A stretch of 64,000 bases of DNA from Oscillospiraceae bacterium (GTDB lineage Bacteria; Bacillota; Clostridia; Oscillospirales; UBA644). The notes beneath the pieces are model-generated. The model was not told where the DNA came from, ran no database searches, and worked only from the letters and a program-made list of their open reading frames with translations. The stretch covers positions 36,759-100,758 of the forward strand of contig SVMT01000002.1 in NCBI GenBank assembly GCA_015067305.1, written 5' to 3'. Numbering within the stretch: the first letter of the stretch is position 1; each line of letters begins with the position of its first letter. The position numbers and the translations under genes were made by a program. Below, in pieces: positions 19,779 to 58,832 of the stretch.

Positions 19779-19855
19779 GTATCCGTAGCTCAGCAGGATA
19801 GAGCAACTGCCTTCTAAGCAGTAGGTTGGGGGTTCGAGTCCCTCCGGGTACGCCA
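19779..19855 (+). tRNA. tRNA-Arg(UCU)
   Basis: Cloverleaf; anticodon arm ACTGC-CT-TCT-AA-GCAGT; GGTTCGAGT; encoded CCA. Confidence 0.97.
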
Positions 19856-19857
19856 GA

Positions 19858-19912
19858 TGAGAGGTAATAGTTGAATAGATAGTGGAAATTATCTATTATC
19901 TGTTATCTCTCA
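19858..19912 (+). other. Long hairpin in the tRNA spacer
   Basis: TGAGAGGTAATAG/CTGTTATCTCTCA plus AATAGATAGT-GGAA-ATTATCTATT. Confidence 0.75.
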
Positions 19913-19924
19913 AAAATTTTATAT

Positions 19925-20000
19925 TGGGGCATCGCCAAGTCGGTAAGGCACAGGACTTTGACTCCTGTACTCGCTGGTTCGAGTCCAGCTGTCCCAGCCA
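19925..20000 (+). tRNA. tRNA-Gln(UUG)
   Basis: TGGGGCA acceptor; CAGGA-CT-TTG-AC-TCCTG; GGTTCGAGT; CCA. Confidence 0.97.
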
Positions 20001-45184: not shown

Positions 45185-45273
45185 GCCGGTGTGGCGGAAT
45201 TGGCAGACGCCCGGGACTTAAAATCCCGTGAAACGAGAGTTTCGTACCGGTTCAAGCCCGGTCACCGGCACCA
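45185..45273 (+). tRNA. tRNA-Leu(UAA)
   Basis: CGGGA-CT-TAA-AA-TCCCG, long variable arm GAAAC-GAGA-GTTTC, CCA. Confidence 0.97.
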
Positions 45274-45299
45274 ATATGCCGAACCGGAAAATTAAATAT

Positions 45300-45376
45300 C
45301 GCGGAGTGGAGCAGTCCGGCAGCTCGTTGGGCTCATAACCCAAAGGTCGTAGGTTCAAATCCTGCCTCCGCAACCA
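45300..45376 (+). tRNA. Initiator tRNA-fMet(CAU)
   Basis: C1:A72 mismatch, GGG-CTCATAA-CCC anticodon arm, CCA. Confidence 0.97.
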
Positions 45377-55529: not shown

Positions 55530-56531
55530 CTATTGTTTTTTCTTGATTTTTTTATTCAAAGGATTAGAATCCAATGCTTCAGTTATTTCTTTGTCAGCTA
55601 AATGAGTATATATCTGAGTTGTTCCGAGGTTTGAATGCCCGAGGATTTCCTGTAAAACCCTGATATCCACGCCTTCTTGATGCATGAGAGTTGCGGCAGT
55701 ATGCCGAAGTTTGTGAGGGGAGTATATAGTCTTATCCAAACCACTTTGCTGTAAATGCTTATCTACAAGAACCTCAACCATTCTGCGAGAAATACGTCTT
55801 CCGTTTCTACTGATAAAAACCGCTTTTTTGGCATCAGGATCATTTAAATCCTTGGGACGTATCTTCAAATATTCAACCAAAGCATCAATGCAAGATTGAT
55901 TGAGGTGAATAAGTCTTTCCTTATTGCCTTTGCCGACAACCCTGAGAACGCTGCCATTTATATCATTGAGGTTCATTCCAACGAGTTCAGACAAACGCAA
56001 ACCACAATTTAAAAAAATGGTAATTATGGCAAAATTTCGAACTTGATTTTTACCATCGATATTTTCTAATAATCCAACACTTTCTTCAACATTTAAATAA
56101 ACAGGGAGACGTTTCTTGATTTTTGGAGCTTCCAGATATTCAGTAGGATTATTTTCAATGATCGCATTTTTATTCAGATGTTTATAAAAACCTTTTAAAG
56201 AAGATATTTTACGTGAACGAGTCGTTGCATTATTTTGACGCTCATCATTTGCGTAATTCAAATAAATATAGATATCAGATAATGTAAGACTCGCAACAAT
56301 GTCAAGGCTTAATCCAACAGGATTAATCTCATCAATGGGAAGATCTGATAAATTCTTATAAGAAACAAGAAATCTGAAAAAGCCACGAAGGTCAATGTAA
56401 TACGCATCGACAGTTCGACTTGAAAGGTTTCGAACATTTTTCAGATAAAACAAATAGTCACGTGCGTATGTGGGAACATCTCCGTAATTATTATATCGTT
56501 CGCCGCGAACAGTCTTAGAAGTGCTTGCCAT
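55530..56531 (-). CDS. xerC: Tyrosine recombinase XerC/XerD
   Basis: SAM domain, GLRLSEL, GKGNKER, HKLRHTAAT, LGH..LGTTQIYTH; start moved to 56531; no mobile-element context. Confidence 0.88.
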   Translation of the reverse strand: MASTSKTVRGERYNNYGDVPTYARDYLFYLKNVRNLSSRTVDAYYIDLRGFFRFLVSYKNLSDLPIDEINPVGLSLDIVASLTLSDIYIYLNYANDERQNNATTRSRKISSLKGFYKHLNKNAIIENNPTEYLEAPKIKKRLPVYLNVEESVGLLENIDGKNQVRNFAIITIFLNCGLRLSELVGMNLNDINGSVLRVVGKGNKERLIHLNQSCIDALVEYLKIRPKDLNDPDAKKAVFISRNGRRISRRMVEVLVDKHLQQSGLDKTIYSPHKLRHTAATLMHQEGVDIRVLQEILGHSNLGTTQIYTHLADKEITEALDSNPLNKKIKKKQ

Positions 56532-56646
56532 AAGAGCCTCCAAATAATAAATATGGTCTGTTGGGAATAGGTAATTTAAATACATATATAATTTCGTTAA
56601 ATGAATATTTAGCGCAATTCAGGGTATATAAAATAGACATATTATA

Positions 56647-56675
56647 ATTATATCAAATCTTTTCTATAATGTCAA
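56647..56675 (-). promoter_or_regulatory. Sigma-A promoter of xerC
   Basis: TTGACA-17 nt-TATAAT. Confidence 0.8.
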
Positions 56676-56730: not shown

Positions 56731-56759
56731 TTGACAAAACCAAATTATTATGATATATT
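56731..56759 (+). promoter_or_regulatory. Sigma-A promoter of yhhQ-queL-trmO
   Basis: TTGACA-17 nt-TATATT with TG extension. Confidence 0.78.
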
Positions 56760-56799
56760 TAGACAGAAATAAATTTTATAAATCAATAAGGAGTTTATT

Positions 56800-57468
56800 A
56801 TGAAACAACAGGTATCGGAAAACCCTGCAAAAAACCGAGATGAATTCAGTTATCTTTTGATAATTACAGCACTTATGGTTACTTGTTATCTGACATCAAA
56901 TATTATGGCTGTAAAATTGATTGATTTCGGAGGGATAACAGGCTTTGATGCAGGAACAATAACATTCCCTCTTGCATATATGCTAGGAGATGTTTTAACA
57001 GAGATTTGGGGTTTTAAAACCTCACGAAAGGTTATATTCTTAACATTTACGTGTAATATATTTTTAATTATATTCACATTTATAGGTATCTATTTACCGA
57101 GTCCAGATTATATGTCAGAAATAAATAATGCTTATGCAATGATTTTTACCTACACACCGAGAATCCTGATAGCGTCATTGATTGCTTTTATTTTCGGGGA
57201 AATATCTAACGCATGGGTAATGGAAAGAATCAAATTTCTTACTAAAGGAAAATTTTTATTTTTGCGTACTATTCTTAGTTCTGCAGTAGGATATACTTTT
57301 GACACTGTATTATTTGTTGTAATCGCATATATTGGTAACGTACCGATATTCGATATACTATCTATGATATTTGTGCAATATGCAGTTAAAATGCTCATAG
57401 AAGCTGTTTGCTCTACCCCACTCACCTACGGGTTTGTAGCATTTTTAAAAAAGAAAGTAGAGAAATAA
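56800..57468 (+). CDS. yhhQ: Queuosine precursor transporter (YhhQ/VUT family)
   Basis: SNIMAVK, FPLAYMLGDVLTEIWG, PRILIAS..AF, RTILSS..G...DT. Confidence 0.92.
   Translation: MKQQVSENPAKNRDEFSYLLIITALMVTCYLTSNIMAVKLIDFGGITGFDAGTITFPLAYMLGDVLTEIWGFKTSRKVIFLTFTCNIFLIIFTFIGIYLPSPDYMSEINNAYAMIFTYTPRILIASLIAFIFGEISNAWVMERIKFLTKGKFLFLRTILSSAVGYTFDTVLFVVIAYIGNVPIFDILSMIFVQYAVKMLIEAVCSTPLTYGFVAFLKKKVEK
56809..56839 (+). ncRNA. preQ1-I-like H-type pseudoknot inside the yhhQ coding sequence
   Basis: CAGG-TATCGGAAAAC-CCTG-CAAAAAA-CCGA: P1 CAGG/CCTG, P2 TCGG/CCGA, A-rich loop 3. Confidence 0.6.
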
Positions 57469-57474
57469 ACTGAT

Positions 57475-58167
57475 ATGGATGAACTTGAAAGATATTCTGT
57501 CATAGATAGCCATATGAAAAGAGAATTTTTACTCTTACAAGGTACAGGATGTATTTGGAAAAAATGTACTTTTTGTGATTATCACAATGATATCAGCAAA
57601 AATCCTTATGAGGTAAATAAAGCAGTTATTGATAAAATATCAGGCAAATATAGCGTTATAGATATAATCAATTCAGGATCCATTTTTGAACTTGACATTA
57701 AAACGCTTGAATATTTAAAAGACAAAATAACAGAAAAAAACATAAAAACTTTATGGTGTGAATCTCATTGGTTATATCATAAAAGGCTTGACGAGATAAG
57801 AAACTATTTTAAAGGTGTCAATGTAAAGTTCAGAATTGGTGCTGAAACCTTTGATCAGATCATGAGAAAAAAGTGGAATAAAGGTATCCCTGAAAATATT
57901 ACAGCGAAAAAAATAAGCAACTTTTTTGACGGCGCTTGCCTATTGGTCTGCGTACAAGGACAAACTAAAGAATCAATTCTGAAAGATATAGAATTAGCTA
58001 AAAATAATTTTGAATATTTCAATGTGAATGTTTTTGGTGAAAACAGTACCGATGTCAAAGCAGATAAGGAACTTAAGAAATGGTTTACTGAAGAAATTGC
58101 CCCACAATTGGAAAAATATAACAATATTGAAGTATTGATAGATAATACAGATTTAGGTGTTGGTTAA
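57475..58167 (+). CDS. queL: Small radical-SAM enzyme, probable queuine lyase
   Basis: ERYSVI...REFLLLQGTGCIWKKCTFCDYH, INSGS, ESHW, GAETFD; 230 aa; adjacent to yhhQ. Confidence 0.8.
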   Translation: MDELERYSVIDSHMKREFLLLQGTGCIWKKCTFCDYHNDISKNPYEVNKAVIDKISGKYSVIDIINSGSIFELDIKTLEYLKDKITEKNIKTLWCESHWLYHKRLDEIRNYFKGVNVKFRIGAETFDQIMRKKWNKGIPENITAKKISNFFDGACLLVCVQGQTKESILKDIELAKNNFEYFNVNVFGENSTDVKADKELKKWFTEEIAPQLEKYNNIEVLIDNTDLGVG

Positions 58168-58832
58168 TGAAAATAATAGCTAAAATTGAAAATGAATTCA
58201 CATCCAAATTCGGAATCCCAAGACAAAGCGGTTTAATTGAAACCGAATCAAAAATTATATTTGAGCCCCAATATCGCGACCCTGATGCCATTCGCGGTAT
58301 AGAGGGCTTTTCTCATTTATGGATCATATGGGAATTCAGTATGTCGAAAACTGAGAAATGGAAGCCTACTGTCAGACCACCAAGACTTGGAGGAAACAAA
58401 AGAGTTGGTGTTTTTGCGACACGTTCTCCTTTCCGCCCAAACCCAATAGGACTGTCCTGCGTAAAGATCAAATCAGTTGAAAAGACTACTGAGTATGGAC
58501 CGATAATAACAGTCATAGGGGCTGACATGATGAACGGTACTCCAATATATGATATTAAGCCATACATACCATTTTCTGACGCTCACCCGGAAGCTCTTGG
58601 AGGTTTTGCAGAAGAAAAATTTTATAAAAAACTTTCAGTTTCATTTTCAGAAGAGTCCCTGAAAGAACTCTCCCCAAATGACCTAACAATTCTTACTAAA
58701 TTACTTGAACAAGATCCTCGACCAGCTTATCAACACGATCCTACAAGAGAATATAGTTTTGAATACGGCAATTTAAGCATTAAATTTAATGTAAAGGATA
58801 ACAACTTGACAGTAAAATCAATAATAAAATAA
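58167..58832 (+). CDS. trmO: tRNA t6A37 N6-methyltransferase
   Basis: KFGIPRQSG, FSHLW, VRPPRLGGN, GVFATRSPFRPN, DIKPY, QDPRPAY. Confidence 0.93.
   Translation: MKIIAKIENEFTSKFGIPRQSGLIETESKIIFEPQYRDPDAIRGIEGFSHLWIIWEFSMSKTEKWKPTVRPPRLGGNKRVGVFATRSPFRPNPIGLSCVKIKSVEKTTEYGPIITVIGADMMNGTPIYDIKPYIPFSDAHPEALGGFAEEKFYKKLSVSFSEESLKELSPNDLTILTKLLEQDPRPAYQHDPTREYSFEYGNLSIKFNVKDNNLTVKSIIK

Follow-up and report, generated by a model that had tools for sequence, protein, structure and literature searches.

The window analysed here is a stretch of 64,000 nucleotides from an Oscillospiraceae bacterium (GenBank assembly GCA_015067305.1, contig SVMT01000002.1, positions 36,759 to 100,758). It carries yhhQ, which encodes a queuosine-precursor transporter, and the first codons of this gene also spell out an RNA element that resembles the aptamer of class-I preQ1 riboswitches. 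On comparative grounds it is close to certain that an RNA pseudoknot is under selection inside the yhhQ coding sequence. The core of the original prediction, a class-I-like preQ1 pseudoknot within the translated 5' end of yhhQ and downstream of the real start codon, is upheld by covariation in the helices, by frozen synonymous sites, by a reading frame that is fixed in 48 of 48 loci and by the Shine-Dalgarno (SD) sequences of the Bacillota. We consider it likely that the element is best explained as a preQ1-type sensor that would block the initiation of translation.

Layout and covariation of the yhhQ pseudoknot

The motif occupies positions 56809-56838, where it reads CAGG-UA-UCGG-AAAAC-CCUG-CAAAAAA-CCGA and doubles as codons 4-13 of yhhQ. 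Its helices (P1 and P2) and loops (L1 to L3) are arranged as follows.

56809-56812, plus strand: 5' strand of P1, CAGG; G56812 lies in the closing G-C pair, the putative pocket floor (alignment, covariation)
56813-56814, plus strand: L1, UA; U56813 matches the ligand-contacting L1 uridine of class I (invariant U, 48 of 48)
56815-56818, plus strand: 5' strand of P2, UCGG (complementarity, covariation)
56819-56823, plus strand: L2, AAAAC; C56823 is the putative specificity cytosine (AAC invariant in the alignment)
56824-56827, plus strand: 3' strand of P1, CCUG (covariation)
56828-56834, plus strand: L3, CAAAAAA, A-rich (two adenines of its 3' part, A27 and A28, invariant)
56835-56838, plus strand: 3' strand of P2, CCGA, which holds no SD sequence (complementary to UCGG at 56815-56818)

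The motif string, its coordinates and the complementarity of UCGG and CCGA are found exactly where they had been predicted, and the accompanying caveat of a 4-bp P1 and a short third loop is also borne out (4 bp, and an L3 of 6-7 nt). The P1 loop, UAUCGGAAAAC, spans 56813-56823 and ends in C56823, which is the third base of an Asn codon. Read in the zero frame, the A-run of L3 at 56830-56836 is A AAA AAC and so has the shape of a -1 slippery heptamer. A layout descriptor written after the fact (P1 with four Watson-Crick pairs, the closing one G-C; a U next to it; P2 with four pairs; AC at the end of L2; and an A-rich L3 with AA at its end) matches once on both strands of the whole 2.33-Mb genome, at the yhhQ site, and gives a mean of 0.1 matches on ten first-order Markov genomes. 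A custom model, R1, scores 53.5 bits at the yhhQ site versus 18 bits at the next best place in the genome.

Homologous loci were collected by a scan of one genome per species. The scan yielded 57 loci from Bacillota, Bacteroidota and Fibrobacterota, with proteins that are 53-67% identical, and the element stands right after the start codon in 46 of them as well as in the further locus L016. These 46 loci, L016 and the window make up an alignment of 48 rows, 41 of them distinct. Rows were chosen by a structure-aware finder that demanded 4 of 4 pairs in P1 and at least 3 of 4 in P2; the imperfect rows L028, L030 and L033 are manual additions, and L037, which is decayed, was excluded. Standard pairs fill 97.3% of the pair cells, a percentage that is somewhat inflated because the finder demanded pairing. 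Changes on both sides of a pair are present in 6 of the 8 pairs (42 cells), that is in 3 of the 4 pairs of each helix. None of 500 shuffles reaches the observed pairing and slid partners give at most 57% paired, although the shuffle counts are not probabilities because many of the sequences are related.

The first P2 pair is the most variable in kind, being UA in 17 of the 41 distinct rows, CG in 11, GC in 4, AU in 2, UG in 1 and unpaired in 6, and the second P2 pair is CG in 36 and UA in 5. The outer P1 pair is C-G or A-U and the third is G-C or A-U (pair types in P1 are CG/AU, AU/GC and GC/AU); the closing G-C pair is invariant in all 41 distinct rows. When the pairs are mapped on a protein tree that leaves out the N-terminal columns, at least 12 state changes are needed for the first P2 pair, 7 for the outer P1 pair, 3 for the second P2 pair and 1 for the third P1 pair, so the covariation reflects repeated events and not one inherited change. 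L3 is 6, 7 or 10 nt long among the relatives, with 3 extra nt in two Bacillota loci. The proposed check by alignment of codons 4-13 of the orthologues therefore returned both nucleotide-level conservation and covariation in the two helices.

A context-free scan of metagenomes, in which the helix-variable positions were left open, found the motif in at least 120 stretches, from which 80 loci were fetched. In 73 of the 80 an in-frame YhhQ homologue comes after the motif; six more are cut or broken and one is unrelated. The open P1 pair is standard in 78 of the 80 and both open P2 pairs in 76, with six complementary P2 combinations among them, and these open-position counts are free of the finder's pairing bias. 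The one match outside YhhQ (L159, 5406-5435) has no nearby start, lies in an unrelated frame of 90 aa and has a G-U-rich 'P2'; it is probably due to chance. Among 151 genomes of the class Clostridia, R1 found at least four with strong matches, all at yhhQ starts, and among 151 genomes of the order around genome G208 it found at least two with matches; both counts are lower bounds, 45 candidates per genome having been scored. Five R1 matches of 24-28 bits were rejected as spurious, as they lack the P1 3' strand or the A-run. From these surveys the element appears to be essentially confined to the YhhQ-type transporter.

Start codon, reading frame and codon constraint

The position of the aptamer relative to the signals of transcription and translation is central to its interpretation. 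The signals at the 5' end of the gene are listed below.

56731-56759, plus strand: sigma-70-type promoter, TTGACA, a 17-nt spacer and a TG-extended TATATT (11 of 12 matches, TG present)
56788-56793, plus strand: SD sequence AAGGAG, 6 nt 5' of the ATG and upstream of the aptamer (sequence)
56800-56802, plus strand: yhhQ start codon ATG, 9 nt 5' of P1 (the sole start from the upstream in-frame stop to the motif)
56800-57468, plus strand: yhhQ/QPTR queuosine-precursor transporter gene, 222 aa, host of the aptamer (Pfam Vut_1, TIGR00697)

The promoter and the leader with its strong AAGGAG were found as the original prediction had described them, and the leader from the predicted transcription start to the yhhQ ATG would be about 34 nt long. 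The motif is in frame with a long open reading frame (ORF) in 48 of 48 loci, with an ATG 3, 6 or 9 nt upstream of it. P1 begins at +10 in the window, at +7 in most copies from Bacteroidota and Fibrobacterota and at +4 in L073. Downstream of the motif the next in-frame start in the window, the TTG of codon 20, lacks a preceding SD-like sequence, which agrees with the claim that no in-frame start with a ribosome-binding site follows the motif. The same holds across the alignment, where an SD-like sequence precedes the next in-frame start in only 1 of 48 loci and where, in many of the 48, that start lies inside the first membrane helix.

An SD-like sequence is found before the aptamer-proximal start in 24 of the 25 Bacillota or unlabelled loci, and in the 25th (L031) an AAAGGA, identified by eye, precedes an ATG 6 nt further upstream. 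None of the 23 loci from Bacteroidota and Fibrobacterota has one, as is expected for these phyla. A TAnnTTT[G/A] box is present upstream of the ATG in 16 of these 23 loci; the distance from the end of the box to the ATG is 5-34 nt overall and 5-7 nt in all five Fibrobacter loci. This box may be the promoter element of the Bacteroidota/Fibrobacterota group; if it is, the leaders are very short or absent and there is no room in them for a leader aptamer. In the metagenome set an ATG lies 6 or 9 nt upstream in 75 of the 80 loci. Four loci lack a near ATG; the two of these that were inspected each have AAAGGA followed by a TTG 9 nt 5' of P1. As far as sequence can tell, the true start codon is upstream of the aptamer.

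The codons that make up the element are constrained in a manner that the rest of the gene is not. The Asn codon is AAC in 48 of 48 rows (never AAU) and in 40 of 41 at the two Asn columns of the element, the Lys codon is AAA in 47 of 47 and the Pro codon is CCU in 42 of 43. At about 100 other well-conserved columns of the same genes the share of the commonest codon is 0.24-0.81, and Asn columns elsewhere in the gene split 25/23, 24/14 and 24/22 and Lys columns 20/25 and 23/25 between their codons. The first base of the Ser, Pro, Ala or Thr codon (UCG, CCG, GCG or ACG) covaries with a silent site, the third position of the Arg codon (CGA, CGG, CGC or CGU), and CUG (Leu) covaries with CAG (Gln). 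The Fibrobacter copies, with CAAG/CUUG in place of CAGG/CCUG, keep the helices; their L3 is 1 nt shorter, which shifts the frame of the P2 3' strand, and their peptide therefore reads ENLGKTD instead of ENPAKNR. The frozen synonymous sites, the covariation with silent sites and the change of peptide in Fibrobacter show that selection acts on the RNA fold independently of the peptide. To judge from these patterns, the N-terminal amino acids follow the RNA.

Two ordinary explanations can be weighed against these data. The element could be a 5'-UTR (untranslated region) riboswitch of the usual kind behind a mis-called start, with the real start downstream of 56838; earlier surveys screened out overlaps between aptamers and ORFs as start-codon errors, and one discarded aptamers overlapped by more than 60 nt by an ORF as mis-annotations (PMC2258182, available part). 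The chance that this is the case here is very slight, given that the ORF is open through the motif in a single frame in every locus and L3 insertions are of 3 nt, that an SD sequence precedes the upstream ATG and hardly ever the next start, and that a promoter-like box stands too close to the ATG to leave room for a leader aptamer in 16 of 23 loci. It is equally hard to credit that selection maintains a conserved N-terminal peptide motif (ENPxKNR) whose likeness to RNA is a coincidence or a dead relic. The peptide is alike in most copies from Bacillota and Bacteroidota, but its synonymous sites are frozen, a first codon position covaries with a silent third position, the Fibrobacter copies preserve the RNA pairs under another peptide, and the Pfam domain begins only at residue 50. 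Freely varying synonymous sites, which had been named as grounds for abandoning the prediction, are thus not what the alignment contains. The suggestion that the element might be a fossil, absorbed when the start codon moved upstream, can be rejected as well, since compensatory changes would not persist in three phyla if the element were a decaying relic.

Relationship to class-I preQ1 riboswitches

Class-I preQ1 riboswitches are H-type pseudoknots in which a canonical P1 is followed by an A-rich L3 that docks in the P1 groove. According to the available part of a 2024 review of the family (PMC11625349), the specificity cytosine lies just 5' of the P1 3' strand (as AC in types II and III and as UC in type I), an L1 uridine and an adenine in the 3' part of L3 read the ligand edge, and a conserved G-C pair closing P1 is the floor of the pocket. 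preQ1 is the ligand of all three class-I types, even though each has its own consensus. The genes under the control of preQ1 riboswitches include yhhQ, queT, queL and queK (PMC11625349, PMC12519234, available parts).

The counterparts of these pocket positions in the 48-row alignment (G7-C19, U8, A17-C18, A27/A28 and G13-C33, the last being the pair above the pocket, or ceiling) are invariant or nearly so. U8, A16, A17, C18, A27 and A28 are invariant, with U8, A17 and C18 identical in 48 of 48 rows. The AC that carries the specificity cytosine is therefore fixed, as are the L1 uridine, the L3 adenines and the G-C floor, and covariation in both helices fits the pseudoknot architecture of class I. 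Because the unpaired nucleotides are the most conserved, the pattern points to a pocket rather than to a mere hairpin. The association with queuosine genes is equally in keeping with class I, as the host protein is a member of TIGR00697/Vut_1 and 73 of the 80 context-free matches stand before a YhhQ homologue.

The element is most similar to the type II aptamers of preQ1-I (RF00522), such as those of Thermoanaerobacter tengcongensis and Bacillus subtilis (PMC11625349, available part). Both are H-type pseudoknots with a 2-nt L1 that starts with U, a P2 formed by the loop and the 3' tail, an L2 ending in AC, an A-rich L3, a P1 closed by G-C and a link to queuosine-precursor genes. They differ in that the tail here is CCGN or CCAG, whereas that of type II is purine-rich and SD-like, and in that the whole aptamer here is translated and lies downstream of the SD sequence and the start codon. 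The type III yhhQ riboswitch of Escherichia coli (PMC10622847, PMC11625349, available parts) serves the same transporter family (yhhQ/QPTR) and exerts translational control through a class-I pseudoknot, and a translational step is proposed here too; that riboswitch is in the 5' leader and buries the SD sequence in P2, whereas here the SD sequence is free upstream and the aptamer overlaps codons 4-13. A further parallel is the type I riboswitch of Carnobacterium antarcticum, a class-I aptamer described as 'separated from its ribosome-binding site', which regulates translation without full sequestration of the SD sequence (PMC10018353, available part). It resides in the 5' leader, binds two ligands and has UC before P1, whereas the present element has AC and is inside the ORF. 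Leader placement with a ribosome-binding site in or after the 3' tail is not seen in our loci, where the aptamer begins 3-9 nt past the start in 48 of 48. With no ribosome-binding site in its 3' tail, the element would have its expression platform 5' of the aptamer, unlike every described preQ1 riboswitch. On our best reading, the element is a class-I-like preQ1 variant that is closest to type II and would have a new placement and a new output.

Several observations weigh against this reading, in addition to the selection of paired rows and the relatedness of the sequences considered above. P1 has 4 bp and not the 5 bp of the RF00522 consensus, and alignment columns 3 and 23, which flank it, are by eye non-complementary in the window and in most rows; L3, at 6-7 nt, is shorter than in class I. 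The loop sequence departs from the RF00522 consensus as well, and so does the tail, which is SD-like in that consensus. The search with the Rfam PreQ1 model that had been put forward as a check found no match at the site: RF00522 gave none at E<=10 on 61 nt or 401 nt around the motif, none at the gathering threshold (39 bits) in the whole window, six at E<=10 over the whole genome but none of them at yhhQ, and none at E<=0.001 in three other Clostridia genomes that carry the motif. RF01054 (preQ1-II) likewise has no match at the site, its best score in the genome being 18.8 bits elsewhere, and RF02680 (preQ1-III) has none in the genome. Since these searches are negative, the element falls outside RF00522 as delimited by that model, and its resemblance to class I is one of layout and key positions, not one captured by the family model. 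The element is also absent from 11 of the 57 close homologues, whose N-terminus is different or shorter, from which it follows that the transporter works without it, and the tree requires at least five changes between presence and absence. The predicted folding energy of the 30-mer, -2.3 kcal/mol, is no better than that of shuffles (z about 0). P1 alone has -1.9 kcal/mol and the 95-nt 5' region -10.9 kcal/mol, again with z about 0. These are minimum free energies of secondary structure that leave pseudoknots and ligands out of account, and poor predicted energies relative to shuffles are typical of such tiny aptamers as well; we regard this last result as neutral. In the minimum-free-energy structure, pairing joins the AU-rich leader to the SD region (56768-56799); the whole-region z of -0.11 does not set it apart from shuffles.

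The RF00522 matches in 151 Clostridia genomes are of interest in their own right. Only 1 of the 13 matches at E<=0.001 passed the 39-bit gathering threshold (L089-L100, genomes G066-G201). Those of the 28-33-bit matches that were viewed show the full class-I layout beside an SD sequence, among them a type-II-like example of 31 bits. The Rfam threshold probably misses many genuine class-I riboswitches in Clostridia.

In the mechanism that we propose, the 30 nt would form a compact H-type pseudoknot aptamer and would also be translated into an N-terminal tail of the protein. Abundant preQ1, or a very close 7-deazaguanine, would lock P1 and P2. Because the aptamer starts 3-9 nt past the start codon, its 5' half would lie inside the mRNA that the small subunit threads at initiation, and the folded aptamer and the initiating ribosome would be mutually exclusive. 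The yhhQ / radical-SAM / trmO operon would then be translated less in the ligand-bound state (an OFF switch). In the ligand-free state the helices would be marginal, at about -2 kcal/mol, and the strong SD sequence and ATG would work freely. From the sequence we infer that a ligand binds, which one it is, that its effect is repression and that initiation is the step at which it acts. The 30S subunit requires roughly the first 15 coding nt to be single-stranded, as is known from footprinting and from the 'five-codon window' of antisense repression; structure in the early coding region lowers expression, and small RNAs target this window. The site proposed here, mRNA at about +7 to +15, is the same as in five-codon-window repression, but the blocker would be a cis-encoded pseudoknot locked by a metabolite and not an antisense RNA or a fixed hairpin. 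On balance we lean towards a truly dual-coding riboswitch, in which the same 30 nt would be both a metabolite-binding aptamer and ten codons, and the platform would be the ribosome footprint downstream of the start.

Other ligands and other outputs have to be considered. The same architecture and the same block of initiation might serve queuine, preQ0 or another 7-deazapurine or guanine-like base as the natural ligand. Such a change of ligand would suit the mismatch with RF00522 and the shorter P1 and L3. The QueL-like radical-SAM gene that comes next in 20 of 62 loci suggests queuine as the imported substrate, and QPTR members do vary in substrate, between preQ0/preQ1 and queuine (PMC11130926, available part). 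We nevertheless hold another ligand to be unlikely, as all the positions with which class I reads preQ1 are kept (the AC, the L1 U, the L3 A and the G-C floor), as the three class-I types show that consensus can differ while the ligand remains preQ1, and as the end product of QueL in the salvage logic is preQ1. The pseudoknot might instead be conserved without any ligand, to damp initiation constitutively, to affect mRNA stability or to respond to temperature or Mg. Covariation demonstrates structure and not a ligand, there is no Rfam match and the helices are weak, all of which would be compatible with a ligand-free element. We find this improbable because the most conserved nucleotides are the unpaired U8, A16-A17-C18 and A27-A28, which a pocket needs and a plain structure does not; the conserved positions coincide one for one with the class-I pocket (PMC11625349, available part), and the exclusive association with a queuosine-precursor transporter gene (73 of 80 loci) fits a signal from the Q pathway.

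Much less probable is an action on elongating ribosomes, by ligand-dependent pausing or by -1 frameshifting on A AAA AAC to give a truncated product. Engineered preQ1 pseudoknots can stimulate -1 frameshifting, and in the window, as in many relatives, the zero-frame reading of the L3 run is A AAA AAC. However, the slippery-like run is inside the pseudoknot and not 5-9 nt upstream of it, it gives way to UUC AAA AAC in several Bacteroidota and to GGC AAA ACC in Fibrobacter, and no conserved structure follows it.

Operon, distribution and significance

The product of yhhQ matches Pfam Vut_1 at 2.3e-43 and TIGR00697 at 1.4e-31 in profile searches, with the Pfam domain beginning at residue 50 as noted above. 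Two genes follow on the same strand.

57475-58167, plus strand: small radical-SAM-like protein, 230 aa, QueL-like candidate (names of relatives)
58167-58832, plus strand: trmO, tRNA m6t6A methyltransferase (Pfam/NCBIfam profile searches)

The 230-aa ORF begins 6 nt past the yhhQ stop, and its own stop overlaps the trmO start (TAATG). Its protein has no match in Pfam or NCBIfam. Among the best 120 of 2718 relatives the names are absent or 'radical SAM protein', and some of these have PF04055; 'QueL-like' is a tentative name. A radical-SAM-like gene comes after yhhQ in 20 of 62 related loci and is probably co-regulated with it, and trmO is probably part of the same operon. The tight spacing of the genes makes it probable that both are under the proposed yhhQ switch. 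Head to head with yhhQ lies a tyrosine recombinase/integrase gene (55530-56585, minus strand; Phage_integrase, 2.3e-39), which has a TG-extended promoter of its own with a perfect 12 of 12 matches (56647-56675, minus strand). yhhQ is present in 5 of 61 related genomes, including that of the window, and in 0 of 15 of the same genus. As a recombinase adjoins the block and the same-genus genomes lack yhhQ, the yhhQ / radical-SAM / trmO block looks recently acquired. Elsewhere in the window there are four tRNA genes in two pairs, at 19779-19997 and 45185-45373 (Rfam tRNA, 54-68 bits).

The 2.33-Mb genome, which is 84.7% complete, has a tgt match at 523 bits and, for the QueC family, a marginal 28-bit match only, within a 369-aa ORF. 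No catalogued preQ1 riboswitch of any class (RF00522, RF01054, RF02680) was found in this incomplete assembly. Taken together, these observations are compatible with a way of life based on salvage, with preQ1 as the natural feedback signal.

The presence of the element and its surroundings vary among the relatives. In 15 motif-less loci R1 with filters off gives at best 12.1 bits and nothing at any yhhQ start, and Rfam at gathering finds one tRNA only, so the aptamer-less homologues have no catalogued leader riboswitch as a substitute. In Fibrobacter, near-identical transporters occur with the module (L035, L039, L040, L042, L077) and without it (L036, L038, L041, L043, L045, L050, L055). In L039 the module and a linker are prefixed to the N-terminus at the point where the module-less genes begin (EFDIGAKRDPFSPL). 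The N-terminal codons of L037 at 1484-1530 (KQIPTTPAEQKH) resemble a decayed motif in which P1 and P2 are non-complementary and which R1 does not match; L037 may be a real fossil of the element. The genome of L044 has a second copy of the aptamer at 1494-1600, 1005 nt upstream of the intact gene (also L106). This extra copy, some 30 codons from the 5' end of a truncated yhhQ, directly follows prfA and ends at an oppositely oriented gene for a short-chain dehydrogenase, and in L056 an intact yhhQ follows the same upstream sequence. The arrangement appears to be a sign of local rearrangement around the element.

A search of the literature, supplements being outside its scope, found no published account of a preQ1 aptamer, or of another natural bacterial aptamer, wholly within translated sequence. 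In the available part of the 2024 review of the preQ1 family the terms 'coding region', 'coding sequence', 'open reading frame' and 'start codon' do not occur (PMC11625349). Riboswitches are defined, sought and catalogued as leader elements. Here a selected, class-I-like element sits in translated sequence in three phyla, and the Rfam model is blind to it.

The layout would have consequences of its own if the dual-coding interpretation is true. Neither a leader nor sequestration of the SD sequence would be needed, which would suit bacteria that initiate without SD sequences or nearly without leaders, such as Bacteroidota and Fibrobacterota. The regulator would travel with the ORF in horizontal transfer. 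Each translating ribosome would unfold and reset the sensor, and this could give history-dependent (bistable) control. Searches confined to intergenic regions would have missed a layer of riboswitches.

In practice, the element can mark out a subfamily of queuosine-precursor transporters among gut bacteria, and with its 4-bp P1 it offers structural work a minimal putative aptamer variant of 30 nt. If binding and regulation are confirmed, an aptamer can share its nucleotides with codons over long evolutionary times, and the RNA can dictate the codons and even the amino acids of an N-terminal tail. Blocking the downstream part of the ribosome-binding site would then be a natural riboswitch output that is usable without an SD sequence, and coding regions would merit systematic searches for riboswitches.

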